A stretch of DNA of 61,791 bases, the filler included, from Bipalium vagum (Eukaryota), in the NCBI GenBank assembly GCA_037834085.1. It is 3 parts of 3 records of this genome, joined end to end, with 100 filler letters (N's around TTAATTAATTAA, not from the genome) between each part and the next. Parts side by side here need not be neighbours in the genome. Positions count along the whole stretch, not along the records: positions 1 to 25,368 come from JBBMKC010194719.1; 2 more parts are not named here. The stretch is one strand, 5' to 3'. The notes under the pieces are model-generated. The model was given only the letters and a program-made list of their open reading frames with translations, was not told the origin of the DNA and did no database searches. Of this stretch, positions 1 to 61,719 are shown piece by piece; position 1 is the stretch's first letter, and every line of letters begins with the position of its first letter. Position numbers and translations under genes: made by a program.

Positions 1-70
<70 letters not shown>
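1..70. repeat. (TTA)n microsatellite
   Basis: Pure TTA triplet run at the window start. Confidence 0.98.
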
Positions 71-71
<1 letters not shown>

Positions 72-176
72 TCATTCATTTTATTTATAAAAGATTAATT
101 CGTTTAACTTTTTAAAAAATTACTAATTTTCTTTTACATCAGATGAAATCTGTTTTAAGTGTTCCTTCAAGAATTT

Positions 177-419
177 TCAACTTACAGAAATATTATCATT
201 TAAAGGATCAGAAATATTTATTATTTTGTTATTATTCATATTTATAATACCTTTCATTGAATCTCCAGTAACATTAAAAAATTTATTTTCACTTTCATCT
301 CTAATAAAATCAATAACCTCATTTTCATTTTTAAATTGATAAGGTGATTTTGAATAAATATATTCTCCATTTTTAGCAAAAGGTTTCAATAGCAAAGGTT
401 TCAAAAGCGGAGCTTGCAT
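177..419 (-). CDS. Hypothetical ORF fragment within the Polinton remnant
   Basis: 80-aa ORF starting 21 bp after the protease stop, same strand, virus-like compact spacing; no recognised motif. Confidence 0.35.
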   Translation of the reverse strand: MQAPLLKPLLLKPFAKNGEYIYSKSPYQFKNENEVIDFIRDESENKFFNVTGDSMKGIINMNNNKIINISDPLNDNISVS

Positions 420-439
420 TTTTTATTTAATTTTTAATT

Positions 440-1001
440 TTAACTTCTCAAAAATACATATTCTAACTCCTCTAAAAATCGAGCAAAGCTCTCACGAAGT
501 TTTACTTCATTTTCCTCAAATTGTTTCTCAATAAAAAGTTGATATAAAACATATGAAGTTAATTGTCCACAATAAGATAAATCTGTCCCACTTTGAAAAT
601 CAAATGTATTATACTCTTTAACATGTTTCTTTAAATCTACAAGAGGTGGTAAACCATAAGAATCAAAGTAGTTAACATTAAAAAATCCAACCTAATGAAT
701 TCCTTTTTGTTTTGTATTTTGATAATTAATAATTAATGGAATTTCTTTTTTTAATATGCGAGGTTTCACCTCTAGCAGTAAGCTGCGTTTTTTCTTTGAG
801 TTCATCCAGAATTAAAACTTTTAAGGGAAATTCTAAATCTTCAGCAATATCTATTAAATCAAAATTTGTTGTTGTATTAATTCCATATTTACATAAAAAC
901 TCTAAAAGTGACCCGAAGGGTCTAGAAGCTTCGCTTCGTAAAGGTGTTCTAACTTTTGAAAATCGAGACGAACCTTGTGGTTTCAAAAACGTAGTTTGCA
1001 T
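440..1001 (-). pseudogene. Polinton cysteine protease (adenain/C5-like PRO) pseudogene
   Basis: After a frameshift near 735 it reads IINYQNTKQKGIH*VGFFNVNYFDSYGLPPLVDLKKHVKEYNTFDFQSGTDLSYCGQLTSYVLY. This gives the H(W), YFDSYG, Q and CG catalytic motifs, with the W codon mutated to TAG. Confidence 0.85.
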
Positions 1002-1212
1002 TTTTTTAAAAAATTGAGTTGGGAAAAAAATATTACTTTTGGGAAAAATTTGAAGTTGAAAAAGGGATCAAAATATAGACCAGCTCAGCTGGCTGGAGTA
1101 AAACTCAAAAAATTTCCTTGTTTAATAATTTTAATTTTATTTTTACACATTTTCCCCAATAACTCTTTAGTTCTTTTCTTTCTAATTTCTGTAAACTTTT
1201 ATATATAAACTA

Positions 1213-1832
1213 TTATATTAAACTATTTAAAATTGTATCCTTTAATCCTTTACCAAAATAAGTATCATAAAAAACTCCTGCTTCAGTTTTTTCAGATGTG
1301 GAAGCTTTGCTTCCTAGAACTTCGGCTTCAACTTTTCCACTTCCATCTCCAATTTTTTTTCCAATTCTATCTTTTCTTTCTCTCCATTTTTTGGAGCTTC
1401 TTTCGACTTTTGAATTGCTGTTGTGACTCATTCAGCATCTAAACCTGATTCTCTTGGTAAACTTAATCCTAGAACAATCTTGCTCTTCATAATTAATTTA
1501 ACAATTGCTCTTTCTAATTTTTCTCTTGGAGTTGAATTTTGAATGTTGTTCGTTTCGTGAATCATTTCTACATCTGCAACATGTCTATCTTTTAAATCTG
1601 TTGACATATATTTTACATCATGTTTCATTACTCCTTAATCTATTCGATTAATTGGAATTGAATCAGGTTTTGGAATTGGAGGAATATTTAAAGTTTTATT
1701 TTCTTCATAATTATTTACTACCTTATTATAGTTTTCTAATCTTTTATGTCCCTGGCCCACGAAATTCGCAACCGGATTTATTTTATTAAAAGGATTCAAA
1801 GATTTTAAATGAAATTCTCCTGAATATTTTCC
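1213..1832 (-). pseudogene. Parvovirus-type phospholipase A2 domain protein (Polinton/adintovirus PLA2) pseudogene
   Basis: GEFHL...NFVG(PGT, restored by a 1-nt insertion)...PINRID*GVMKHDVKY..DLKDRHVAD...ERAIVKLIMKSKIVLGL: Ca-loop plus HDxxY catalytic motif and the typical C-terminal helix; contains an internal stop and frameshifts. Confidence 0.85.
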
Positions 1833-2639
1833 TTATATAAATTTATTTTAAAATTTGTTTATTTGTCATAGCTGATTGAATGTCACCTCCATTTTTTATA
1901 AAGAGATTTTGATATTTTTCTTGAATATTTTCAATATTAGTTTTAATCCTCCTTTTAGGAAGATTTTCCATTTTTGGAGGAGGAGACCTTCTAATTAGAG
2001 GATTCTATTTTTGGAGGAGGAGACCTCTTTCTAAGAGGATTATCTTCTATTTTTGGAAGAGAAAGATTAGCCCATGATTTTCTACTATTTAAAAAAATGT
2101 ATATTTGTATTTTCATGTTTACTTTTATTTTTTAAAAAATACTTTTATCACAAAATTCACAATAATATTTTTCTAGCATTTTTAAAGAGAAAAAAATTGA
2201 GTTATCTCAATTTAGAAAAAACGTTGGAATTTCCTTTTTTACCCTGCGGGTATGGAAAAGTCACACAAAATTCTTTTTTAGTTGTGGGATTTTATTTTTA
2301 TTATCGAAATATTCACAACCCATTTAAGAGAAAATTTGATTTTTTTATTGTTTTTTTCTAATTTTTTTTACTAATTTTATTTCTTAGAGAATGTCTCTCA
2401 AGAAGCGAAGCCTTGTATTTTTTATTTTTTTCCTTATTTTTTAGAAATATTTTTTTACTTATTTTTATATCTCCAGCATATCCAACCAAAAAATATTTTT
2501 TGAGATGGGGGATATACTGGAGATATAACTACTTATATATATAATACCGAAAATTGTTTATGTATAATTAATTATTACCTTTCGATAACTAATTCAATAT
2601 ATTGACTATTTTACCATTCAATCAAGTTAAGACAATCCC

Positions 2640-3310
2640 AGTGAAGTATTAAACGCGCAGTGATGTAATTTACACAGTTATCTTGCAAAAACATTTTATC
2701 AAAACTTCTTTTCAATTTGAGCTGAGAGGAATATTATCACTATTAATTATTATTAGTTATCAAAAATGATTACAGGTGACGAATGTTAGATATATGTGTA
2801 TTAACCTGAAAATAAAAATCTATCGACGGTATGGGTCTTTAAGATGATCCAAAGCCAACAAAAGTTGATCGTGCTCGAAGTACTTCAAAGCTAATAGTGA
2901 TCTATTCTTTCGGAAAAATTTGATATGTCACAATTGTGACTAGAGTTTCATATAATTGGTAATTCTGAAAGATAAAAATGTTTTTGCTAGAAGGCAGAAG
3001 AAAAAGGAAAGAACAACGAATCATTCTTAACAAAGCCAATGCCAGATTCACATCAAAGAACTAAATTTTTGAACTCCAAAAAAATCACACACACATCATC
3101 TATCGTATAGTCTTGTTCTGTATTCGAACGATTTCTTTTTATTCCCATATGTGGAAAAAGAACTGCGCGGAGAATAATTTTCGGCACCAGAGTATGATGC
3201 GTTCAAATTCATATTCCGTCATATTTTGTTTTCTATGGACAAAATTTTTTGAAAATTGGTTCACAAGTATCCCAAAAAGTATTAACGCGAAGGAGAATAT
3301 TTCAATAAGC
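2640..3310 (+). mobile_element. mariner transposase remnant
   Basis: MITGDE.*IY.Y.PE.K..STVWVF, PKPTKV.RARSTSK and a degenerate HPPYSPDL..NDFFLFP motif, with many stops. Confidence 0.8.
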
Positions 3311-3459
3311 AAAAACATAAATTGTTGCAAATAAATTTTAGTTTTTGACATTATTTTTATTTTTTTGCAATGCCTATCGAGCAGCCCACGCATATTCTGG
3401 TATATTTATTATATAAATATATTTATAAAATTTTGAAAATCTTAAAAATTATTTACCAT

Positions 3460-6400
3460 TTAGACTGCAAGGTAATTAATAACTAAAATTTACCTGCTAC
3501 CGTTAAGGCGTTTTCAACTATTTGTGCAGCATCGTTTCTGTTCATTTCAACGAGTTGCTCCAACACAGCTTTTGTAGCTTCAACTTTTCTTCGAACAGCG
3601 AACCAATCACTCAAAAGACTCATACAGGGGTCAGGATGAGTTGACCAAGCTCGAATATCTTCAACAGAATATCCCAAACGAGACGCTAATAAGGTCCAGT
3701 CTTCGTTTGACTTATCATTCAACAATTTACTGACTTCTCGTGCCCATTTAGGAGCACTTGACACAGTCTAAATCAGCTTAAACTATTATCCAGGAGCAAA
3801 GAATAAACTTTTAAGTCGATTTCTTGAACTTGCTCAACTATTTCTTTGACATTAGCTTTTATTTCAGTGACAACTAAATCATTATCATCGATTTTCTTGT
3901 TAATTTCAACAATATTTTCTTTTTGTTCTTTCAAGTCTCTAAAATTTTAGAAAATTTTATATCATACTAAGCTAAAACATTTTCCTGAAAGAATCTAATT
4001 AATTAAAAAAAAATAAAACATAATTTTCAAAAGATGATAATTATGTGATTATTCTCTGATAAAAAATAATTATCCCAATTTATGGATTAGAAACCCTGAT
4101 CTTCTTTCAAAATTTATTGATTAAAATGAGCCTTGAAGATATATCCATTAACTTATGTTATAAGAAATGACAAAGACCAACAAAAGAGAAAGGTTATTAC
4201 TGGTAAAATCTTAAAGACAAAAAAGACAATAATAAATAAACATTTTTTTATTGATTGTATCGAAACTATAAAGAGACTTTATAATAATATAATTATAAAA
4301 ATTCAACCTCACGGAATACGTCCTCAGTATGTCTATGGAAGATTGAGAAAAAAGATATTCAGATATGTTTGGACTTTAGAAGTGTTAATGCATTGTATTA
4401 TATCAAAATACCAGAATGTAATGAGGAGTACAATAAATTTCTTCCTACAGACTAAGATTAAACATGTTATCAAATTGAGTTCAATTCAAAGGACTCTCTT
4501 GCAATCTGTTTAGGCTTTTCTTGTAGAATTGGCTCCTGTATTGAAAAACCCTAACTTATTGGTAATATAGTCGGTAAATTTTCATTGATTTGCTCATGTG
4601 CATTTGATTATTTTATGGTGTTTGTTATTTTGCATTTTAAACTGTGCCTTTCTTAACTTTCTTTTCATCTTCTATTTTGCGGATGTTCATACCGTTTCCA
4701 AGCTGTTTTATTATTATCTTCTTGACTTCCCGATTTATCTTGTTCTTTCTTTCTTATTTTATCAAATGTCATAATTGGCCACAAAAATTTAACAAAAATA
4801 TTTTTAAATAAATCTCAAATTATGAATATGACGATTTTATAGACATGTTCCAAGCAATACAGTGCTTAAATTAAAATTTTCATAACTTTACTCTATGTCG
4901 GTGTACTTTATAAAATTGATTTTATTTAGTAAATATATTTCAATTTCATTATAAAATTGTACTTTTTATTGAAATGTACTTCATGTTGGGTGTACTTTAA
5001 AGGGAGATTTCAATGTATTTAGATTTTCCAACAAATAATAATCATGTAATTTTATCAAATTATCAGTTATTGTAATTTTTATTTTATTTTTCTATCTTAA
5101 TTAGATTAAGAAAAATTATAAAATATGCTTTATAGTTATTGTTTTAAAATTTTAATACATTTATTTTAACCTAAAAGCTATTTTTAGAAGTATCCTTGCA
5201 TTTATAGAAGATAAAATTCTTAAAAGAAACTTATTAAAAATTAATGTCACAAAAATATTTTTATTATCCTGTAAGTAAAATAATGTACTCACTTTCCGAT
5301 CGCGTCGACTAGGCCACTCTGATCCTCTACTTTCTGATCAATCAATTCTATCACTTGTTTCTGTTTGTTGATATTAGAGTCCAACTGAGCCAAAGACCGA
5401 TCGGCAATAATGTCCAGTAAATGCTGACAAGTGTCATGGAAAGCTTTATTAGATTTCTGCCAATTTTCTATATTCGTTTTGAATTTGACCAGTAAATCAT
5501 TTCTCAACAGTCCCATGGCTCGAAGTCCACTGAAGATGCAAATGCAGAACGAGTTATCACCGATGTTTTGATTGATCAAATCTGCAATCAGTGAAAAGAG
5601 CTGCTCTCCAGAACTCTTGAAAATGATTTAACTTCACATAAATTAGCAATTGAAAATATTTACAAGATCCTGTTCCAGAATGTTGGTAATTATCCCCATA
5701 AATGGGGTTATCATAACCAATTTAGAACTTTCCAAGCCTTCCACAAGCTTATTCAAAAATGGTCTCAAAGCATGTGAATGGGTTTTACTGATAATATTGA
5801 TCAGGTTTCCTATAAAGTAAGCATTGTTTGTATCTTCAACTAATTTTTCCACAATGTTTGGGATAATGTTTTCGTTGATCTTCTGAATATATGATTATAG
5901 ATAGACACCGTTAAATAATAAACGAAATTTGTTGTCATGCTTTTCTAAAGCATTTTTTAACATAAAATAAATTTATAAATTTAATAAATTTATCGAATAA
6001 TATCATAGCTAATTAGACGTTAACATATTTGCATTAATGTTATATTTGTGTTCAACATAAAATAATAAGTAATCTACAGTCAATAGTATGGCCTTGTTTA
6101 CATGCCTACCAAAATTATTATTTCAACAAGACTCCGGTGTGATTTATTGAACATCATGTAAATTGTCCAGAAAATTTTGAGAGTCGTTGATTGAAGCAAA
6201 AATTAATATACACAGTGTGTTATATAAGTAACCGAACTTTGGATTTAAATCATAAATTAAGTTTCATTTGTTTAAACTAATCATTAATTTAAAATTACCT
6301 CTTTCATTTTTGAAAATCATCAAAATTTATTTTATTTGGATAACAGATTGAATTTTATTTGCCTTTAAATAAAGGTATGTATCATGCTTATGTCATAGAT

Positions 6401-9400
6401 TTACAGTGGAACAAAGAGTAAATATTACATTTTCAAGGGTATATATCATTTGGACAATTTTAACGAAAGATTTTGGTAAAAGAAAGGTTTGTTCCCCATG
6501 CATTAACTGAAGACAAGAAAACAGCTAGTGTTGAATATTGTAAAGATATCCTCAACAATGTTGAAAACAATCCAGAATATATTGACTAAATGATAACTGG
6601 TGACGAGACGTGGTGTTCAAATATGATCCGTAAACCAAGCGTATTTTATGAAAATGTTCAAGCTATTCAAGCAGCTGTAACATCAGTGCTCACGAAAATT
6701 CCTTTAAATAACTTTAAAAAATTAATGAATGCACTAGCTGACCGTGCCAGATGTTCTATCGAATCCCATGGAGTTCATTTTGAATAATTATAATCTTTCA
6801 TGCATAATATAATGTGTATTTTATTGTATATATATATATTTTTATAACAAGCTTTGTATCTAATTTTGAAAAATGGAACAGCTTTAACTTGAATGATTTT
6901 AAGGTTTATTTTGATTAGTTTCAAACCAAAGAATTACTATTATTATTAATTTATGGTTTTAAAACATTAATATAAAAACCTCTGGATATTCGGTGTATGT
7001 AGTAATCAATATTTGAATAATAGGTAGAATATGATGACCGTTTTCCAATGAAGTTAGAAAATTTTCCAATTTATTCAAATGATCCAAACCAGCCAAGGGT
7101 TTGGCTTCAATAATGACCTGAAGTCCATCTGTACAATAAACAATAAATAATGAACATTGATTTAAAAGAAATGACTGTACCTAAAAATGAATAAATATTT
7201 CCTTCCATACTGGTGCCCGTTAATTTGTCAACCATTTCTACAATATCGGGAATATTATTAACAAGAATTTCTGGTGATGTACATTTTCTTGGAACCATCA
7301 TGGCATATGCAACGTACGCAGAGTAATAACTATGAGAATCATCTGTATTATTGAGGGTTTGAAAAAGAAGAGAGTACAGCTCAGCTGTGAAATTCAAAAC
7401 TGGTTTCTGAAATAATAGAATAAAATGTTTTATTTCTCAGCATTTCTATAAAAAGTAATTCCTACTCATACCTAATAGTCATTTTAGGAACTATTCACCT
7501 AAATATTTTTATCGGAAATGTTGGCTTTCAAATTGTTTCATTAAAAATTATCAAATTTCTATTTATTATATTGGCAAAAATATCTTTAATTGTTAAGTTT
7601 TTATTTTCACATAAAAGTGTATGCAATTCATAATATCATATATAACATTTATTAATAATAATATTATTATTTATTACATTTATAATATATATAATTTTGT
7701 GTTAGAAACTTGGATTTTTAAAATTCAAAATCCATACGACTCTGTATGGCGTAATATACTTCATATTATTTTTGTTGTACATTTTGAGACAAAATGACAA
7801 AATTAATCTGTCTTTGTATTGATTAATTAATATTGAATTTTTCTGATATATATGATTGGATGTTGTTTATATATTTCGATTCCTTTAAACTAAGGTGTTG
7901 GATTACAGTTAAAATACCTTTTAATAAATATCCAAACATTTCCATCCAATTTATTATTAATTTTTAGTTAAGAAATAGCTTACTTTTTTACCAATTAAAT
8001 AAATAATTATTTAATAATTTTAAAAGCATTTTTGAAATGAATCTCATGTAGTTAAGGACAATCGGGAAGTCTTTAGATTCCCATGGTGATTTCTGTGTTT
8101 GATTCTATTTTGCAACAGAATGAAAAAATTTGCTTTATTTGTTGGTACTGATTTGATTTTTTTCCTCAAGTATATTGATGATTTTTTGATTTTTAGCAAT
8201 TTCAGATCAATATTAATAATTATTTGATTAAAGAACTTTTTCTGGAAGAGTTTCAATAAAATGAATTATAAAAATATTCAACTTTGAACAGTTCAACAAT
8301 TTTATATTAGAAGACTTGAAAATTTTCCACATTTTCGTCATAGACTAACATAAGGTTTAAAATCAATTTTAATAAATCTATTAACAAAATCACACATTTA
8401 GAACAATTAATAATTATATTAATATCATTTGTTTTCCGAATTTTAAGATGTGACAAAAAATTCACAAAAAACAAGTTCGATTTTTAATGAATTTTATTTC
8501 ATGAAAGAAAAATGCAGTTATCAATTTGGTTCTGATACCATATCAGAAAGAACGATGTTGAAGTGGTTAACACAATTAAGCTAAGTCAGTTTTGAGTTGA
8601 AAGATGAAGCTCGTTCTGGCCGACCAATCGAAGACAAAATAATGAAAACAATCAACCAAGACCGTCACATAAGCAATTATGGCATTGCTGCGGATATAGG
8701 GATTTGTAAGATATTGTTGTAATCATCTGGAAAAGCTGGGCTACAAGGAAAAGTTTGATATTTGGGCGCCTCATAATTTACCTGAAAAGAATTTAATCAG
8801 CAGAATTTCTATTTATGAATCTTTATTGAATAGAAATGAATTTGAACAGCTTCTTAAAAATATACAGTAATTGCAGAATCTGAAAAATAGATCAAGTATG
8901 ATAATAATGTGAGAAAATGTCGTGGTCCAAAAAAAAAGCTCCACAAAATATTGCAAAATCAATATTGTCTTCGAGAAAGGTGACGTTGCTGTTTACTGGG
9001 ATTTTGCAGAATGAATTGCTGAAACCTGGTCAAACAGTTGATTTTATATTTTATTGTCAGCAACTTGAAAGATTAAATCAAGCGATGAAAAAAAACTACC
9101 TGAATCTCTCAACATAAAGAGCATTGTGTTTTATCACAATGACACTCGTTCATACATCTTTAATGAGTCGTCAAAAATTGAAAGAGCTTGAAGTGGAAAG
9201 TTCTCATGCAACTAGCGTGTAGTCCAGACCTAGCACCATCGGATTACCCTTTGTTTCTGTTTCTGCATAACTTTTTTTAATGGTATAAACTTTTTAAATG
9301 GAATTCCAGTGATTTCAAGAGAAGACTGTGATAAAAACATTGAACATTTTTTGATCCGTGATGGCATTAGGAATTTACCAAATAAAAGGTGAAAGATTAT

Positions 9401-11935
9401 CGAACAAAATGGAACATATATAATTAAATAGTTTTTTCATTGTATGAAATTTTTTTACTTTAAAGCAGATGAATTTTTAGGTCACTTTTCCTTAATGATT
9501 TAATTTATTTGAAATTTTTTGAAGTTAGTTAAAAAGTAATAGAAATATCGATAAATTTTCAAGATAACTTAAGAAAACCTATCTCAAATAAAAATGTAGA
9601 GAAAACAAAATCTAAAAAATAATGTATAAACAATCAATTACCGTAACAAGAAATTGTTGAAAGATAAACAGAATTATCATAGAGTTGGTATTGAATGATA
9701 ACTCTCCATCATAATTCTCCCACTGCAAACCATTTTCCAAACAGGACCTACATATAATAATGATCTCTTTCACCGAAGATAAATATTTTGTTGGGGACTG
9801 ACTAAAGTAAAATATGAAAAGTGAGATGAACTAAATTTCAAGAGGAAACCTTATGAATTCCGATATGTTTTTTATCAACTCACCAAGTGCAAGGGTGTGT
9901 GGATTATAAATGAGAAACAGCATGTTATTAATCAATGAGTTTATAAGCTTCAACAATTCCAGCATTTCTTCTGGGGAATAATCCTAAATATTTTCAATAA
10001 ACTTTTATATTATGTCAATAATATCTATAACTTCTTAACACTTCTTTTTTATTGACAGTTATTATTGAAATAAATCATTGTATTAATGCCCTTGAAATCA
10101 AAAAATTCTTCTACACCCTCCATTCCAAAAATAACCGAACTTTAAAAAAAGGCAACCAATATTTTTTTGATTAAAATAATTTTTATTAATCGATGTAATC
10201 GCCTTCTGCATCGATACACAAATTTGCACGCACTAACAAGTTGTCAAACAACTTCTCTTTTAGGTAATAGTCTAGGCACCGGTCACCGTATTTTTTATGC
10301 CCTCAACCGACTCTGGAAGCTTTCCTTTGATCGTCAAATGAAGTTTGGGAATAAAATCAGCATAACCTTCACTTTTGATTTTTCCAAACGAGATTTTTTC
10401 GGTTTTCCCTCATCCGGCGATCTCCATTCAGCACTCTGCCGCTTTGTTTCGGGCTCATACCTAAAACATCTTGTCATCGGTAAAAATCGTTTTCAAGACG
10501 TTTGGGTCTTTCCGAGCACTTTTAATGATGTCTTTGCTATGATCAATTCGAGGCATTTTTTGGTCTTTGGTGAGTTTGTGTGGAACAAACCGCGAATTAA
10601 CCTTACGTAAGCAAAATGCGGTCAAAATACGGTATGCAGTTGTTTGAGGAATACCTAATTTCATTTCAATCAATTTCACCGATGATTTTTTATTATTTTT
10701 GATAAATTCACGCATTTTTTCAATGTTATCTTCCGATTATCCAGTTTTTGGACGGCCTGGTCTTTCGTCGTCATTTATGGTCTCTCTACCCGATTCAAAT
10801 CGCTTGAACCACTCGTATACTTGCCTACGAGATAGACATTCATCACTATATGCAGATTGTAGCATTTGATGTGTTTCGGTAAAAAATTTAACACAAAAGT
10901 CAATTGCAGCTCTTTCTTTGAAATTCATTTTCTAACCGAAGTATTAAACAGACTAACAAAAACGTAGCAATTACTCACGTTGTTTATATCATAATGTCAT
11001 GAATATTTTATCGATTGTCAATGAATGACCACGTTATCTAGGGGTATAATGTTAAAATAAATGGTGCTTGTAGTACTATTTTTTTAACAAGTTCGGTTAT
11101 TTTTTGAATGGAGGGTGTATTAAATACAATTTATTTACGTAAATAACAGTTTTAATAAAAATTATAAATGAGAAATATTTTAATTTTAAAAATAATCTTT
11201 TATCTTAATACTTTTCGAACTTTTTGTTTTAATTATTAACCGAAATATTTTTTTATTAAATGTCATTTTTAACTTTAGATGTTTTTATTATATTGAGTAT
11301 TGTTCATATTATTAAAAAAACATTCTAAGTTTAAATTTCAAAGAAATGTTAAAATAAGCTCAAAGTTTAATCTATCAAATAATAAATGTTAAAAATAATG
11401 ACGTTCTTTAAATGCACCATTCTTATACAGTTCCTAATTTTTTGCGAGGTTGTAATGTATTCTTTCCTTTCCAATAATAGTAAAATAAAATATGTTTTAA
11501 ATGCAAGTTCCGATACTAAAGCTGGTAAATAAAAGTCGAAACAAAGTAATCTATGAAATTAACTTACTGATCGAAATATGAATCCATAGATTATCTTTTA
11601 ATATATAAATATTGATTATTTTATTTAGAATAAAGTTACATGTCTTTATGTAATATCGGCAAATACTCTTGGTTAACTCAACAATATAATGAGAAATAAG
11701 AATGTATTAAAGAAGATGCGATGTTGAATTTTTAAATTCTATTTACAACCAGGTTAATTTTCTTTCTCCAAAATTTCAAATATATTCTCATTAAAATCAA
11801 ATAACCTTGAATATTAAGTATGACTGGAATCCACGAATAAACATAATACGAGTGAGACCGAACTGACTAAGAACTTTAAACAGGTTTCTTTTCAAATCTT
11901 CTTGGACAACTGGTGAGTTAAAGGCCTTGGATAAC
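3460..11935 (-). CDS. Multi-exon helical-repeat (ARM/HEAT-like) + coiled-coil + C-terminal Death-domain protein, 5' end unresolved
   Basis: Phase-consistent GT-AG exons 11935-11806, 9983-9850, 9801-9642, 7406-7181, 7128-6980, 5882-5664, 5615-5293, 3938-3809, 3767-3494 and 3464-3460 give about 582 aa without stops. Death-domain motif DWTLLASRLGYSVEDIRAW...SLLSDW...LVEMNRNDAAQIVE. Alternative end at 3483 if the last 29-bp intron is unspliced. Confidence 0.85.
4240..4510 (+). mobile_element. Ty3/Gypsy reverse-transcriptase fragment (decayed)
   Basis: Alternative frame STSRNTSSVCLWKIEKKDIQICLDFRSVNAL resembles the Gypsy RT S.SP.ASP.V.V.KKD...R.C.DYR.LN motif. Confidence 0.45.
4560..5017 (-). mobile_element. 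pogo/Tigger-like 5' remnant
   Basis: TA-CATTGAAATCTCCC TIR-like end at about 5015 and a decayed basic N-terminal ORF. Confidence 0.3.
6210..6800 (+). mobile_element. Internally deleted mariner remnant
   Basis: (V)PHALTEDKKTASVEYCKD...MITGDETWC joined directly to the transposase C-terminus (RARCSIESHGVHFE); TIR-like TAACCGAACTTT shared with the element at 10114. Confidence 0.75.
8400..9480 (+). mobile_element. mariner transposase remnant
   Basis: LKDEARSGRP, WAPHNL (WVPHEL) and CSPDLAPSDY motifs with frameshifts. Confidence 0.85.
10114..11117 (-). mobile_element. mariner element with intact TIRs and TA TSD, internally deleted
   Basis: TIRs CACCCTCCATTC(C/A)AAAATAACCGAACTT at both ends flanked by TA; transposase MNFKERAAIDFC...WFKRFESGRETINDDERPGRP...FVPHKLT...TDDK, with most of the DDD domain deleted. 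Confidence 0.92.
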
Positions 11936-12689: not shown

Positions 12690-13605
12690 ACTAACACATT
12701 AATACTAACATGGACGAAGTTCCTATGTGTTTATATATGCCAGGAAACTACACAATTGAGCAGAAAGGTATGGAAAATGTCAAAATAAACACCACGGGTG
12801 CTGAGAAATGTAGCTTTACTTTTGTGCTAACTGTCACTGGTGACGGTGGGAAACTACCTCCCATGGTAATATTTAAAAAAAAACTGTACTGAAAGAGAAA
12901 TTTCCAAAGGGTATCATTGTTCAAGCAAATGAAATAAGTTGGATGGATACTCAAATGCTTAAATTATGGTTAGCAGAGGTTTGGCGAAAGGGACCTGGAT
13001 CTTTCTTCGAACCAAAATTTACTCTAATTTTTGATTATGCTCCTTCGCATTTAACCGAAACCTCAAAAATAGACACTAAGAGATATTCAACAATTGCTGT
13101 AATTCCTGCTGGATTAACAAAAACTTTTGCAGCCATTGGATATTTCAGTCAATAAAAGTTTTAAATCAAAAGTTAGAAATAAATGGGAACGTTGGATGAT
13201 TAGTGGATTCCATACATTCACAAAAGGTGGTAAAATGCGGAGATCATCATATTCTACTGTTTGTGAATGGATAAACAAAGCATGGAAATCAATTACTCCC
13301 TGATGCTTTGTTAACGGATTTAAAAAATTCAGCATTGTGGAACGTATTGATAAATTGAATGACTTCTCTGATTCAGAGCCTGATAAGTTAGCAGATGAAG
13401 AAGAGGAAGATTTACCCAAATTACCAAAGGATTTTTTGGACATGTTGGATTCTTTGAATTTGAATCAGAAAATGAAAACGATTTTTAAAATAAATTTTGG
13501 CTCTCACTTTTGTTTTTTTCATGTAATCTTTTTGTACAGTTTGCCATGTATAACGAGCATAATATTTGTCAATAACATATCTTTTTTCTTTATATAACGC
13601 GCATA
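12690..13605 (+). mobile_element. pogo-family (DDE_1) transposase pseudogene
   Basis: NMDEVP...TTGAEK..FT.VL....DG.KLPPMVIFK, WMD...W, IPAGLT..LQPLDISVNKSFK; frameshifted. Confidence 0.9.
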
Positions 13606-23340: not shown

Positions 23341-24213
23341 ATTAGGCATTACTCTATTATGAGACGTTTTCATAAAAGAAAATTGTATCATTAGGAAACA
23401 ATTAAAATTAATCAAAATTTGATTGATTTAGAATAATCATAAAAGAAATCGATAACTAATCAATATTATTAATTATGATATTCAAAGTGAAACAAAATAC
23501 CTGGAAATAATTTTCGCTTAAACTGTTGAGCATTAAGTCCAACATGTCACAATTTGTTGCGGTCCATCCTGATTTGATGGTCAATTTTATACAATTAATA
23601 AGATCTTCTTGAACATTAACATTAATACTGTCTCTAAATATTATTTAATTTAGTTAAGATCTGCAAATTATTTACTTAATAACTGACTGAATACTAGACA
23701 TACACTTTATTAACATTACATAATCTTTGGATTTGAAGACTGGGTTGTATTTCTGTATCTTTTGACCCAATGTGTTTATGATGGCAGAGATGGAATCTCC
23801 AATTTCATTAGAATTAAGATTATCAATGGCCGATAAAAAAAGATTAGATTCTTCTTCAGAATTGTTTTCAAATTTTGAATTCAATATTAATTTATTCATA
23901 AAGTCGTAAAAGTATAAGAAAATGATATGCTTAATTAATTTAAAATTCGTGAATGCTGATAGGTGGCTAGTAACAAAAAAATTATTACTTATATGAAGTA
24001 AAACAAAATTCTACTTCTATAAAAAAATATATTGAAATAATTAATATTCAACAATTAATAAGGATAGAGTGAATACATTTAAATTATTATAAGTTTTAAT
24101 CTATCATTCAAATAATAATCTCAATTCTGATTACGGTGTATATTAAGTTGTTTTCAGTATCATAGAAATAACTGCACGTTTGGAAGAAATCATTTCACTA
24201 TTTTACGAATATC

Positions 24214-24316
24214 ACAAATTGTGATATATTAAATTTAATGCTCAACAGCTTAAGCGAAAATGATTTCCAGGTATTTTGTTTCACTTTGAATATTGTAATT
24301 AATAATATTGATTAGT
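24214..24316 (+). repeat. Inverted duplicate of 23455-23557 (exon end + splice donor + intron start)
   Basis: 103-bp ungapped reverse-complement match with 9 mismatches counted by eye. Confidence 0.92.
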
Positions 24317-25368: not shown

Positions 25369-25468
25369 NNNNNNNNNNNNNNNNNNNNNNNNNNNNNNNN
25401 NNNNNNNNNNNNTTAATTAATTAANNNNNNNNNNNNNNNNNNNNNNNNNNNNNNNNNNNNNNNNNNNN
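25369..25468. other. Assembly gap with artificial linker (44 N + TTAATTAATTAA + 44 N)
   Basis: Exactly 100 bp with a six-frame stop linker in the centre. Confidence 0.97.
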
Positions 25469-37970: not shown

Positions 37971-38790
37971 TAATCTTTCTGCCAATTGCTCAAATTCATA
38001 GCGAAGTGACTCAGTTTTTTTGAGGCGAATAATTCCATTTTTGAGCTCTTCCTTTGAACCAAAGCGTCTCCGTAAAAAATGTGAGACCAAAACATATGAT
38101 AATCAGAAGGAGCGAGATTCGGACTATACTCTGTGTGATAGAAGAAGGTTATCATCGATAGCTCGACCATCCGGAACAAGTTACCAGTGCTCAGGCCCCT
38201 CGTAATTCCAACAAACGCATAACATTGATTTCTTTTCGAAGGGATCTGGTGAAACTACTTGCTGAGTTGACTGGCCAGGAAGAAGCCATAGCTTTCCTCT
38301 ACTAGAATTACGGAAGAAAACCCACTCTTCATCTCCTATGCGTCTCCAAAAGCGGTTGTCTTTAGAATTCTGCAGTAATTCGCGGCAAAGATCAACTCGA
38401 CTCTTGGATTGATTATCTGTCAATTCGTTGGGAACTCGGAGTGGGTTTTTATTTACAAAACCCATGTTATGCGGATGACGAACGCTGTTGTTTTGAGAAT
38501 GCTTGAGTTCCTCTGACAGACATCGGGTGCTTGTACTGGGCTGCTGCTCTACTAGGGCTCAAAACTCTTCCTTGTTCACAACCGATGGTCGACTGGAACG
38601 TTCCTGATCCTCAAGACCGGTATCTCCCTGATTAAAGCGACGAAACCACTACTGATCTGTATTTTCCTTGAGCACATTCTTGCCTTCCACGTCGCAAATT
38701 TCTTGAGTTGCAGCTGCAGCTGATATCCTTTTTTTCAAATAATGACATAATATTACTACTAATATAACTACTGACTTTTCTTCAATCATT
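37960..38790 (-). mobile_element. mariner transposase pseudogene
   Basis: WFRRFNQGDTGLEDQERSSRP, VPNELT, IGDEEWV, YSPNLAPSDYHMF. Confidence 0.9.
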
Positions 38791-44748: not shown

Positions 44749-44848
44749 NNNNNNNNNNNNNNNNNNNNNNNNNNNNNNNNNNNNNNNNNNNNTTAATTAA
44801 TTAANNNNNNNNNNNNNNNNNNNNNNNNNNNNNNNNNNNNNNNNNNNN
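44749..44848. other. Assembly gap with artificial linker
   Basis: 44 N + TTAATTAATTAA + 44 N. Confidence 0.97.
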
Positions 44849-45179: not shown

Positions 45180-46322
45180 TCAGATTTTCTTGTCCTCAAT
45201 ATTCAGAGTGACCCCTGAGTTCAGAATGGAATCTCTCTTCTTACTGGCCGAGTTATAGTATACTTTAGATTTAGCAACATAGGAAGCCGTATTCATGGAT
45301 ATATCGTAATCTTTACAATGAAACAATTTCAACAATAAAAATCTAAATTGTGCACTGATCAAAAGCAAAGAAAGTGGATTCAAAAACGGATAGAAATAAG
45401 CAATGACTTGGGTTAGTACCATGGCATAATAGTTGCTGTATTTGGAGGAATAGACAACGATACTATGAATTTGTTCTGGCAGTCTACATAAGAGAAAGGT
45501 TACAATAAATCCGATAACAATTTTCGACGACTTTCTCCGTCTATTTATTGATCTCGAAGTAATATTAGCCTGTACCACTTCAGAGCCACCTTGACTTTCC
45601 AGTTTCAGTGCAATTATTAAATAGCAAACGCTCATGATAGAAAAGGGTAATAAAAAGTGAATAGCAAACTTGGTCCACAAAAGGGCTTTTGCCTTGTTCG
45701 AAGTAAATCCCTCCCGATAAAAACAAACATTGAGCTGAACACAAGACTTATTTACTTGAAGGGTTTTTTCCAGAATGTTTGTTTCCGACACAATTGGTAG
45801 CGATATCATTATAGAAACCAACCAAATAGATATTATGACGATTAAAACAAATTTCTTAGAACGCCAGTATGATGATTGATGGCTCAAAGGTAATACGATC
45901 GCAGTAAATCTGAAAATAATAAAAGATTTCTTTCCAATTAATTATCTATACAAATTTAACCTGTCAATTGCCATTACTGTCAAAGTAAAGACACTGCCTC
46001 CAAGAGTTGCATATTTCGTACAAGCTTGAAGCTTGCATATGACAGAACCCCCAAGAAATGTCGACCAAAACAATCTTGGAACATCAATCAAAACATGTCC
46101 AAACAAATAAAGTATGTCAGCTGAAGCTAGGTTAGCTATAAAAAGGTTCGGAATAGTTTTTAAGCTCTTAAATTTCACTATCAGAAACAGTATGAGAAGA
46201 TTGAAAATTAAACCGAAAACAAAGACAAACAATGCCAAAATTACCACTAAATACTGTTTAAAGCCCGTTGAACCTCGATAAAATGTAGGGTTTGTACAGT
46301 TTTTCAATTCAATGATGGCCAT
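45180..46322 (-). CDS. Rhodopsin-class neuropeptide GPCR, bombesin/GRP-CCHamide-endothelin-like, 363 aa
   Basis: Two exons (46322-45961, 45909-45180) with a 51-bp phase-2 intron in DR|F; 7 TM; IPNLFIANLASAD, ICKL, SVFTLTVMAIDRFTAIVLPL, HFLLPFSIMSVCY, NPLSLLLISAQFR. Confidence 0.9.
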
Positions 46323-47719
46323 AGAATTAAAGAGAATTCATGGAAAGTTATGAAAATAAGAAAGATATTCATTGCTTAATAAATATTGGTGGTTAAATTA
46401 AAAAATAAATCAACCAATCGTAAAGCACGTAAAAATGATTATTTTCTGCAATTTATAATACACCTTGAAATGTTACATTACCAAACAGAAATTACAAACA
46501 ATAACTTTTTGTTTTGATGTCTGAAGTATGTCATAATACAAACAAATAATTTAGTGATCACAAATTCATTTTGTTTACTTATAAATATTTTCAGTCACAA
46601 TACACTTCTCCCAGCGCCATTTTCATTCTTCCAAGTAGTATACCTTTCGTAATATGTATGAAGACAGACTAGAATAATCTTGGTACATCAATTGAAAATG
46701 ATATTCATTTATTATTATAAAATATTATTATTGATCAGATTTAATATTACTAAAATTATAATATTATGCAAGTAATGTAGAACTTATGTCCCAAGCTAAT
46801 GTCTTCAATGATTTTCAGTTGATGGATTCAACAGAATTTTGATTGCTTTTAATTTTCTTAAGATTTCACTGAAGTAAAATGGAGGAATAAGAATCTTGAA
46901 AATATAAAAATCAAGATCCATGAATATTTTATATTAATTGAGATTGTTTAATGTAACGAATTTATCACTGGTTCAAGATATTTTGACCAAATATAAACGC
47001 ACAACCATTCCTCAAGCAGAATATTCACCTGAAATAATTTTAGTAATATTATAAAATTTTAATAAGTACTTTATTTAAAGGTTTTATTACAATAAAATCG
47101 CCTGGTATTATATGTCTAAGGATATAAATTTTAGTATATTAATAATTTTACAATGAAATAGAACTTAAATTTTTTAAAAAATAATATAGAATTCTCTTAA
47201 TTTGATAATTAAGCATTGTTTGAATATTCAGATTTGTCATGGCAAAATAAATAAGGGTTAATATTGATAATTGTGGAACAATTCTTAAATTTCTTAAAGA
47301 AAATAACATTTAAATATTAATATTCAGCAAAATCTTTAATATCGTATTAATTTTTTTTCTTGTATTTGATCAAAAATATAACAATATGTAAACCCGTAAA
47401 AATTTTGAATTATAATTACTTTAAGCCAGGTTAGAAATTGACAACCTATAAAAATATGGTAAAAGATTAAAAAATAAATATATATATTCCTAAATTAATG
47501 TACGTAGAATTATTATGATCAATAAAAAGAAAACCATATTCCGACATTATGTTGATCACTGTAGTGAACCAAACTGTATCGAAGTATCTTAGATGATATA
47601 AGTGCATTTAGACAATTGAACATATGAAAATAAAAATCTTCGTCATTTCATCTAAATCTATTCCTAATTCATTACTATATGAATTAAATCTTCTCTCAAA
47701 CTTATTCATTGTGAGAAAT

Positions 47720-51899: not shown

Positions 51900-52400
51900 C
51901 TTAGCTCTTAGTCGATCAGGCCAACCACCATTAAACCTTTTTCTTTCTTTTATTCACTTCTCTATGTAATCAAATTCTCAACAATTCGAGGGGTGGTGGG
52001 TTAGGGTTAGGCGAGTATGATGGCAGAAATATGTAAGCAATACCTCTTTCTGTCATTACCTTAATAACATCTTTGCGTTGATGGAACCTGGAATTGTCTA
52101 TCACCAATATATCCCCAGGATTTCGATCGAAATGATTGCATAGCTTGTCACTAATAAAGTCCATTGAAAGATCCGTCTTTGATTTCTTAGCATAAAATGC
52201 CTGTAAATTTGATTTAATGAAAAACAGATGACAAAACAATGAAACCTGACATTTTAATATCAACCGTGCAGCTGATATTTTTATCTGACTAAAATCTGAT
52301 CAAATTTAAATAGAAAAAATCGAATTTTTTTTCTATATATTTTGAATAGATTGTTATATATATTTGCATAGAATTATATATATTTTGAATATTTTTCTAT
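51900..52400 (-). mobile_element. IS630/Tc1-like (DDE_3) transposase fragment, copy 2
   Basis: ILVIDNSRFHQRKD...FLPSYSP; homologous to 31740-32230. Confidence 0.82.
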
Positions 52401-54480: not shown

Positions 54481-54882
54481 CAATGTCAATAGTATATATT
54501 TTCTGAAATCATCTCAAATCCAAATATTTTGATATTCTCTTACAATATAAATTATAATACAATATATAATACAACATAAATTTGTTGATTTATTTAAACA
54601 ATGATTCAAAAGTTAGTTGACACTCAAATTTTAAGTTTTCATAAGTAAATTTAGCTGTTACTAGATAATTATGTTAAATTTTTGTTGTTAAAAATCTTCC
54701 TGCATATGAAAAAAATAAACTCTAAAAAATATTTTAAATTTTTAAAATTTTAAATAATAAAAAAAAATAAACCATTAAAAACAAGCGCTCAAAAATTAGT
54801 TGTTATTTTATTTATAATCAATTTATGGTAAGATCATAAACTATTTTCTTAAAATAATGTCTAAAACTATGTAGTTTCAATC

Positions 54883-55760
54883 ATGGTGAGAGCAAAAATT
54901 TATAGTAATGATATTAAGGAACGAGTTGTTATAACAGTAAAAACAGGAAGAACACAAGCAAGTGTTTCGTGTGATTTTGGGCTTAAGCGACAGGTAATCA
55001 GCAATTGGGACAACAAATTTAACAGAAATGGAAATATTGTTAATGCACTAATATCTGGAAGACCAAGGAAAACAACTGCTCATCAAAATCGCATCATTAT
55101 TCGTTCCTCAAAAGCAGATCCACTAAAATCTGTTGTTGATATAGTCACAGAAATTAATCAAAGTCATTCCAATGCATCAAATAAAATCATTGCTTCTACT
55201 GTAAAAAGACGTCTAAAATCTGCTGGACTATTTGCAAGACGACTCAGCTAGAAACCTTTTATATAGAATTAAAATCGATTGGCGAATCGAATCATGAAGA
55301 ATGGACAATTCAAGATTGGTCTAAGGTGCTCTGGAGTGACGAAAACGAATTTAATTTGCTATCTATTGATGGTATTCTATATGTTCGTCGATCTGTTAAC
55401 CAAAGATTTAATGTAAGATATTATGTTCCTACTATTAAACACGGTGGAGGAAATTTCATGGTGTGGGGTTGTTTTCCCAGAGATGGAGTCGGACTCTTAT
55501 TCAAATAAACGGCATCATGAACATGCAAATATATGATACCATAATTAAGGATACAATGATTCCATTTGCAAATGAAACCATAAAAGAAGGCTGGATTTTC
55601 AGCAGTTTAACGACCCCAAACACATATTCAACGTTATTAAACAAACGCTAGAACGCAACAGAATCCGTGTTTTGAAGTGGCCTAGTCAGAGTCCGGACCT
55701 TAATCCGATTGAGCATTTATGGGAGGAGCTTCATCGTATTGTTTTGGTATTAAAAGTACT
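54883..55760 (+). mobile_element. Tc1 (DD34E) transposase pseudogene
   Basis: [54 protein letters not shown]; frameshifts and stops. Confidence 0.95.
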
Positions 55761-59093: not shown

Positions 59094-59305
59094 NNNNNNN
59101 NNNNNNNNNNNNNNNNNNNNNNNNNNNNNNNNNNNNNNNNNNNNNNNNNNNNNNNNNNNNNNNNNNNNNNNNNNNNNNNNNNNNNNNNNNNNNNNNNNNN
59201 NNNNNNNNNNNNNNNNNNNNNNNNNNNNNNNNNNNNNNNNNNNNNNNNNNNNNNNNNNNNNNNNNNNNNNNNNNNNNNNNNNNNNNNNNNNNNNNNNNNN
59301 NNNNN
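59094..59305. other. Sized assembly gap (212 N)
   Basis: N run without linker. Confidence 0.97.
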
Positions 59306-60672: not shown

Positions 60673-61426
60673 CTACAGACTGGTTTCAATGAGGTTGAAT
60701 TTGATTCTTTTCAACTTATCTGAGATCGAAAGGCTCGTTTTTGTCCGTTCATAAATGGGGATTTTCCGACAAACGACAACGTTTTTGAATCCTTCTCGAT
60801 ACGTCTGAGAATATAAGCAATAAATCCACGGATTAATACAAGTGTTCGTTGCGGAGATTAGTTGAAATATGGGAATCAAATAATCGGTAATGAGATCGGC
60901 AAAAGATTGTGTCCAGAAATCTTTATTGGAATAGAAATAATAAATGAAAATCAAATAGAGAGGTAACCACGAAATGGCAAATGTCAGAACAACCATGAAC
61001 AGCATTTTAACTATTCGGATAGATTTTGATCGACTTATGCCCCCCGTTGATTTTATCAAAGGAACTTGTTTCAGCTTTCTGCTATTCGACGTCATATTTG
61101 CTCGCTTATAAATTCGGAAAGCAATACCAAAATAGAAGCACGATATTAAAATCAACGGTGCAATATAACATGTTATGAAGATGACATAAATGAAGTAGTT
61201 CTTTCCCTCTTTGTCCGTTCCCGGCCATTCTTGAATGCAGATTGTTTGGGTTTGATTGATCACTGCAAATGATGTCGAATTGATTAGGTCGATTAACACA
61301 TGGGTTTTATAAAATAAAGCCCATGGTAGCAGTAATAACGCGGAAGAAATCCAAATCAGGGATATGATGGAAATGGCTTTAGATATATTAAGAATTCGAT
61401 GCAAAGGGTGGCAAATTGCAATATAT
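60673..61426 (-). CDS. SIFamide/NPFF-receptor-like GPCR, 3' exon (TM3 end to C-terminus); 5' exon(s) not found in the window
   Basis: Acceptor TTTAG at 61427, then (DR)|YIAICHPL; LPWALFY, CIQEWP, CYIAPL, IVKMLFMVVLTFAISWLPLY, NTCINPWIYCLYSQTYREGFK. Confidence 0.88.
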
Positions 61427-61719
61427 CTAAATATTGGAAAGTTTTTTGTAGAGTGATGACCAAAAGCTTTAAACATCAATTAATTTCAACTAAAAAATGT
61501 TGTAAAATAATCTACAAAATATATTGTTATGAAAATCATCAAAACAGATTTATTTATTTTCACCATTAGAAATTTATTTCTATATTTAAGGTATTTTTGT
61601 TACAATATAATTATTTAATTTTAAAAATATTTAAAAATGATTATGATGTTTTCTCTGATTTTAATAAAAAATAAAAGAAAACTCTAATAGTAAAAGAAAT
61701 TTTGATAATAATTTTAAAT

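Follow-up and report, generated by a model that had tools for sequence, protein, structure and literature searches.

PLA2-like genes characterise the virion modules of Alpha adintoviruses, in which they carry a pX-like tail, according to the passages of PMC8502044 that treat them; flatworm terms occur neither in the main text of that paper nor in one of its supplements. For vertebrate Mavericks, passages of PMC8097293 put the number of elements per host at 8 in the median and 287 at the maximum, name AGTAGT as the commonest end motif, and describe Polinton particles as long predicted and unobserved for integrated Mavericks. Flatworm accounts, as far as their available passages go, report a Maverick expansion in Dugesia (10.64898/2025.12.11.693146), Polintons as piRNA targets in the planarian Schmidtea, with SMEDWI-2 silencing (PMC8532177), and Orthopolintovirales insertions in flatworms (10.1101/2025.04.19.649669). 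Parts of PMC6431247 served as general background.

The locus described here lies in a window of 61,791 nucleotides, filler included, by which we mean the whole stretch of DNA that was analysed. The window is AT-rich animal-type DNA with a GC content of mostly 20-32%. Its positions from about 130 to 2533, read on the minus strand, are most likely (roughly nine chances in ten) a dead, chromosome-integrated, one-ended fragment of a high-copy Polinton/adintovirus family. The fragment retains broken genes of a predicted virion module, namely a phospholipase, a maturation protease and, probably, a fibre protein. Three gene remnants with their breaks, a junction with host DNA and many diverged copies were observed directly. 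The fragment is unexceptional within a kind of element already known, and it is just one among numerous diverged copies in the host's DNA.

The initial annotation had proposed two co-oriented pseudogenes at 440-1832, a parvovirus-type PLA2 and an adenain-like protease, and had taken them for a Polinton/adintovirus remnant. In a three-frame reading every motif that it named was found on the minus strand, and both genes fall within its span; the limits are wrong, since the element runs from about 130 to 2533 and the PLA2 gene starts upstream of 1832. The identification as a Polinton/adintovirus remnant is backed by the fold and family of the protease, by PLA2 family features, by PLA2-protease linkage in viral relatives, by an AGTAGT end and by integration next to a host gene. 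The features of the locus are as follows.

1-71, no strand: (TTA)n microsatellite at the window edge, outside the element, recognised from the sequence.
72-176, no strand: decayed left edge, where family likeness fades at about 130-140 (seven contigs at 137, one at 122-125).
177-419, minus strand: probable fibre-repeat gene remnant directly past the protease, from its likeness to the tail of protein P0073.
440-914, minus strand: adenain-like (clan CE) cysteine protease pseudogene, from relatives, motifs, fold and tree.
1213-1431, minus strand: 72-codon Gly/Lys-rich frame, with multi-copy depth of 1453-6962.
1428-1893, minus strand: PLA2-like pseudogene of parvovirus/Polinton type in which a long loop separates the Ca-binding loop from HDxxY, from relatives and motifs.
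1894-2131, minus strand: short Pro/Lys-rich frames, broken and unmatched in Pfam and PHROG.
2132-2465, no strand: non-coding subterminal region common to other copies (summed contig depth is 212-3470 in bins 2101-2520 and the single-copy level 26).
2466-2528, no strand: subterminal hairpin with a 19-bp outer stem that begins at the last base of the end motif, from DNA folding.
2528-2533, minus strand: probable element end with the AGTAGT motif, from the motif and a drop in depth.
3483-3767, minus strand: host death-domain exon flanking the element end (Pfam Death, E 5.2e-10).

The microsatellite at the window edge is probably an assembly break.

Both pseudogenes were read through, with X placed at the breaks, before homology searches were performed. 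The core frame of the PLA2 runs from 1832 to 1431 with an in-frame stop at 1637-1635, and it carries GEFHL at 1820-1806, PINRID at 1655-1638 and HDVKY at 1622-1608, all on the minus strand. The NFVGPGT motif is present as annotated but split over two frames, NFV lying in the main frame at 1766-1758 and GPGT in another at 1758-1747. At this motif the window PLA2 is three codons shorter than its relatives and its frame is changed for four codons near 1758-1747, a local slip near 1758-1745 that disrupts the Ca loop in the window copy. The genes had been described as hidden by frameshifts, which is right for the protease; the breaks in the PLA2 core amount to one stop and a short local slip, with no net frameshift. 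The N-terminal GGD motif of PLA2 relatives is matched at about 1890, so the gene begins upstream of 1832, with two extra breaks there (a frameshift near 1857 and a stop at 1835-1833).

Of 15 candidates, ten were relatives of the read-through PLA2, at 54-67% identity and with a best E of 1.6e-42. These retain the open Ca loop and PINRID, and HDxxY is kept in eight of the ten. Pfam Phospholip_A2_4 was matched by all six relatives scanned, in one case above the cut-off. The profile check proposed in the initial annotation came out empty for the unjoined element fragments, none of nine of which matches Pfam, and weakly positive for the read-through PLA2, which matches Phospholip_A2_4 below the cut-off at E 0.0068. 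An Atlas feature search gave 0.92 for the PLA2, with one cluster assigned to Cossaviricota. The Ca loop and HDxxY that define the parvovirus-type PLA2 domain of the Alpha-class PLA2X gene are both found. Sequence searches of the PDB with the PLA2 and protease alignments gave chance matches only (best E 0.17 and 0.088), a scan of IMG/VR with the PLA2 alignment confirmed none of 91 stretches, and a metagenome scan with it confirmed one locus, L065, among the 597 matches listed. The structure model of the PLA2 is of low confidence (pLDDT 47) and the fold search from it is without meaning. The PLA2 does not continue into a capsid protein, the longest relatives ending or diverging about 50 residues past HDxxY. 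An Adeno_PX or pX-like domain after the PLA2 was found neither in the window frames nor in the close relatives, which may be truncated; the distant protein P0057 has a pX-like match after its protease (E 0.002).

From the loop glycine to the catalytic histidine there are 47 residues in all nine close relatives measured and 44 in the window copy, compared with 21 (P0149), 31 (P0140 and L065) and 36 (P0144) in distant forms. The insertion of about 25 residues that had been called unusual is therefore real when set against short forms (47 versus 21 in P0149), but less unusual than proposed, other Polinton-type PLA2s having 31 and 36. Judged from the alignments, the long loop is a family-wide trait and not a product of decay, at the long end of a gradient of 21, 31, 36 and 47, because the 47-residue spacing is common to all nine close relatives and falls within a graded range. 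We found no description of a long-loop PLA2 family in the literature within reach; Repbase, subscription papers and bioRxiv supplements, which lie outside it, may hold one.

The protease landmarks on the minus strand are NFDL from 866, the catalytic His at 697, YFDSYG from 670, Gln at 595, CG from 571 and the end of the gene at 442-440. Its reading frame is disrupted twice: it shifts once somewhere from about 789 to 745, and it is stopped at 694-692, immediately past the catalytic His. Its open frame reaches an upstream ATG at 1001, while most relatives begin near 911. In the linker at 745-811 the window copy is about ten residues longer than most relatives, and this linker varies strongly among other contigs, in which 42-106 bases are skipped. 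The read-through protease had eight relatives among 89 candidates (best E 2.4e-49), in all of which the His, YFDSYG and Cys-Gly-Gln are invariant; the close ones may be copies from the same genome. A profile search with the protease reached 4120 representatives at E <=0.001, and the Atlas feature search gave 0.97 to viral clusters bearing Peptidase_C5, a domain annotated on just 11-19% of members in the top rows and on 62% at rank 15. Cluster annotation of 20 relative proteins gave no name beyond 'hypothetical protein'.

A model of the protease relative P0015 (pLDDT 87.9) matched the protease of an unclassified MELD virus at E 1.2e-4 and TM 0.63, the sole Foldseek match under E 0.001. It also matched virophage V9 (Sputnik), adomavirus LO8 and Terrapene adintovirus adenain, as well as clan CE folds including the adenovirus protease (Z 8.6, rmsd 3.6, 120 residues aligned). 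The best structural Z scores were those of bacterial clan CE enzymes (deubiquitylases), tied with the adenovirus protease; given this tie and the single Foldseek match under 0.001, the fold alone does not name the protease family. We built a protease tree of 54 rows, made up of the window copy and its eight relatives, P0026-P0061 of at least 110 residues, seven further matches and four IMG/VR loci, with the other listed matches excluded. In this tree the window protease clusters with six close relatives (support 98/93) on a terminal branch of 0.62, as against 0.16-0.32 for the five nearest relatives, and the IMG/VR relatives, 25-38% identical, lie across a supported branch from it. The adenain-like protease of a Polinton/Maverick (adintovirus) is present at this locus as a gene that is broken in the window copy and open in relatives.

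The frame that comes past the protease, at 419-177, aligns with the tail of P0073 at 45% over 40 residues (pairwise E 2e-08). P0073 consists of a protease followed by a repeat of tail-fibre type that matches PHROG tail-fibre family 2710 at E 3.8e-07, so the gene order of protease then fibre recurs; the window frame itself matches family 2710 at E 0.079. None of 18 candidates was a direct homolog of this frame. A penton assignment for it was tried and dropped: there was no tblastn match in 65 loci, L065 included, or from penton queries, and it was the fibre repeat that matched. On virus contigs L003 and L010 a related small protease is accompanied by long proteins that terminate in an endosialidase-chaperone domain (Peptidase_S74); these long proteins are phage-like fibres in Polinton-like or virophage-like genomes. 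The Gly/Lys-rich frame at 1213-1431 has no homolog in Pfam, PHROG or the 65-locus search and is possibly the remnant of a small virion core protein. Between this frame and the protease, at 900-1219, some contigs skip 173 or 319 bases and the depth is 697 in 981-1120; given these skips and the lower depth, the window copy may hold an extra insert here. Upstream of the PLA2, a 37-nt tandem duplication at 1966-2041 gives Ser-Pro-Pro-Pro repeats in two frames.

The end motif of the element, of the (AGT)2 or (AG)3 type, was found at one end only, where AGTAGT reads inward from 2533 to 2528, and multi-copy cover stops at 2533. Among 59 contigs mapped on 2280-2720, few relative to those on the element genes, depth fell from 56 in bin 2520-2534 to 28 in bin 2535-2549, and two of the eight pieces listed belong to other contigs, which end at 2533 and 2536. 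AGTAGT occurs 15 times in the window, or about 0.002 times per 15-base bin on one strand, and the motif had been spotted before the reads were mapped. A self-search of the window, left edge included, gave no second end motif or second terminal copy. The adjoining hairpin at 2466-2528 folds at -18.2 kcal/mol (z -9.0, equalled by 0 of 200 shuffles) and may represent either a structure of a replication origin or the decayed remains of a two-ended miniature element; Rfam had no match on window 1-6000. Within the subterminal region other contigs join 2344 to 2392 or 2395.

A contig of 4036 nt at depth 26.2, the single-copy level, covers 2199-4200 with no differences and joins the element end to the host death-domain exon. 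This exon is part of a multi-exon host gene at 3483-7436 on the minus strand, which ends in the death domain and adjoins the element end. Elsewhere the window holds two rhodopsin-family receptor genes with long exons at 45180-46337 and 60673-61479 (7tm_1, E 1e-14 to 5e-28) and decayed DDE/Tc1-mariner transposase remnants at 12877-13155, 38181-38558, 51970-52299 and 54865-55508. Two 103-nt arms in inverted orientation, at 23455-23557 and 24214-24316, point to a miniature inverted-repeat element. There are scaffold gaps at 25369-25468, 44749-44848 and 59094-59305, two of them with a TTAATTAATTAA linker between runs of N that is an assembly marker and not biology.

The stretch is found in one public run, from which the assembly may derive; no RNA run is listed with it. 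On window 1-4200 we mapped 4263 contigs from this run, 284 of them at >=99% identity, 710 at 95-99%, 1622 at 90-95% and 1647 below 90%. Summed contig depth ranged from 212 to 51,130 in bins 141-2520 and from 26 to 153 beyond, a quantity that does not equal copy number since overlapping short contigs inflate it. We infer hundreds of family copies in the host, possibly more. In this one run the element is both integrated and multi-copy, as Polintons/Mavericks are.

The stops at 694-692 and 1835-1833 and the frameshift near 1857 are each covered by exactly matching pieces at depth 18-25; two of the three stops, and that frameshift, are therefore present in the reads. At all three stops most of the depth carries a differing letter (15,861 of 17,918; 12,086 of 13,574; 4,717 of 5,135), which points to stops that are private to the window copy or to a small subgroup, and for the same reason intact copies elsewhere in the genome are plausible. 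The two genes hold 27 of the 40 best-supported among 273 difference places, a selected sample, and ten of the 27 fall at third codon positions (p 0.69 against one third), a share near one third, as neutral decay predicts. The frames of both enzymes are stopped beside the catalytic His. The window copy is inert and has likely drifted neutrally since insertion.

Linkage of the two enzymes recurs in distant viral relatives. PLA2 and protease share one ORF in P0140, P0144, P0149 and L001. These one-ORF proteins (in L001 at 10043-10846) combine PLA2 and adenain-like protease in both orders, and P0140 stands for an 11-member cluster. Five distant viral proteins scored 32-52 bits on the real stretch and at most 27 bits on 200 shuffles. 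The pair had been put forward as a marker of animal elements; it is probably not confined to these, as the IMG/VR contig L001 has both in one ORF. Among the other genes of L001 are those for an A32 ATPase and a double jelly-roll protein, and L065, the only confirmed metagenome locus among the PLA2-alignment matches listed, has an A32 ATPase and an rve/chromo integrase beside its PLA2. In the close relative P0025 the PLA2 runs into a stretch resembling the integrase start of L065, a weak likeness (39% over 51 residues, pairwise E 0.002). In the window, tblastn with 12 L065 and L001 proteins, which are distant queries with no known polymerase among them, gave no match and hence no integrase, ATPase or capsid gene, and there is no long ORF of polymerase type.

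One variant of the Polinton reading is that the family consists mainly of short non-autonomous derivatives, made of an end and virion-module genes and moved by a helper Polinton, so that the 2.4-kb piece would be near full size. The end motif lies less than 650 bases from the PLA2 with no core gene in the window, family likeness fades at about 130-140, ahead of the microsatellite, and many joints in other contigs skip 42-583 bases, all as such derivatives would have it. We nevertheless consider the variant unlikely: the left edge has no second end motif, the genes that a derivative could dispense with have much higher depth than the end region, a pattern compatible with past selection on coding sequence, and the integrase-like start past the PLA2 in P0025 implies that gene order varies and that core genes seem linked. 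Quite improbable in our view is accidental germ-line entry of a different PLA2-bearing DNA virus that also has a clan CE protease, either a Polinton-like or MELD virus without integrase or a nucleocytovirus. The top fold match does come from an unclassified MELD virus, many IMG/VR loci with related proteases are giant-virus bins, and the 13 kb of L001 with its protease-PLA2 fusion have no Pfam-detected integrase or polymerase; however, the IMG/VR relatives are only 25-38% identical and lie beyond a supported branch, and thousands of diverged contigs together with an AGTAGT end better fit an integrating element.

That the PLA2 is the VP1-unique domain of an endogenous parvovirus or densovirus capsid remnant, lying by chance beside an unrelated protease gene, would suit its parvovirus type (Phospholip_A2_4, and one Atlas cluster in Cossaviricota). 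Against this, the PLA2 does not run on into a capsid protein with an NS1 gene, as a parvovirus VP1 would, and the first gene that can be recognised after it is the protease; moreover, multi-copy cover is common to both genes and their linkage recurs in four relatives, so we hold this origin to be very improbable. We give just as little credence to an assembly artefact, a contaminant (viral DNA of a co-sequenced organism, with stops from sequencing error) or a decayed pair of host genes. The locus does lie at the window edge beside a microsatellite, and the only run that contains it may be the source of the assembly, but the 4036-nt contig runs at host depth from the element into the host exon without a difference, and two stops as well as the frameshift near 1857 are crossed by exactly matching pieces at depth 18-25. 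As for host genes, the initial annotation had named as its own refutation a lack of Polinton/adintovirus matches or a better match to intron-containing host genes; instead the alignments are colinear without introns, and the named matches are all viral or clan CE.

If established Polinton biology applies to the favoured Polinton/adintovirus element, replication of its parent would have relied on a protein-primed polymerase acting from AGTAGT ends; a retrovirus-like integrase would have inserted the parent element, and a jelly-roll capsid would have packaged it. By analogy with Polintons, adenoviruses and parvoviruses the protease would mature virion core proteins, the PLA2 would help the particle to cross the host membrane on entry, and the fibre would be a surface protein of the particle. 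A bolder proposal, which we regard as doubtful, is that the locus is the fossil of an undescribed, massively amplified animal (probably planarian) polintovirus lineage with a long-loop entry phospholipase and a phage-like fibre, intact and virion-competent members of which are still in the genome. If such virion-making members exist, the host would allow a search for Polinton particles in a regenerating animal of laboratory type. The single locus matters little, decayed Polinton copies being the rule in animal genomes. It is useful as a probe, indicating a host with a large and diverse Polinton family whose virion-module genes are of Alpha type, whose PLA2 loop is long throughout and which probably has a fibre gene. 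Such virion-module genes would argue for a past particle-forming viral stage as opposed to a purely transposon life.

Among described systems, the Alpha (Mayetiola-class) adintoviruses with PLA2X and adenain (Starrett et al. 2021, PMC8502044) are, in the passages on them, like the window element in having separate intronless parvovirus-type PLA2 and adenain genes and in leaving degraded endogenized copies in animal germ lines. The window family differs from that description in having no detected pX-like C-terminal domain and a longer PLA2 loop (47 residues in close relatives). Vertebrate Mavericks, as portrayed in parts of PMC8097293, share the AGTAGT end, a mostly decayed fossil state and a protease among the core genes. 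Compared with the element numbers given there, the read pile-up here, which is no direct copy count, suggests hundreds or more, and PLA2 and fibre are absent from the core genes listed there, whereas both are in the window element, the fibre probably so. The insect Sf Mavericks, in the passages of PMC5803895, likewise combine a PLA2-bearing CAP and PRO in an integrated Maverick; they have INT, ATP and POLB annotated, and the window holds an end fragment only. Planarian Polintons/Mavericks are alike in their high abundance in planarian genomes, if the host is a planarian; the passages on them hold no account of gene content or of a long-loop PLA2, and the comparison is with these descriptions alone. 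Of the two environmental loci, L065 resembles the window family in the moderate extension of its PLA2 loop, the gene lying next to those for an ATPase and an integrase, and L001 in a PLA2 fused to a protease with an ATPase and a jelly-roll capsid nearby; both differ from it in being 30-40% identical, with another gene order and a shorter loop (31 in L065).
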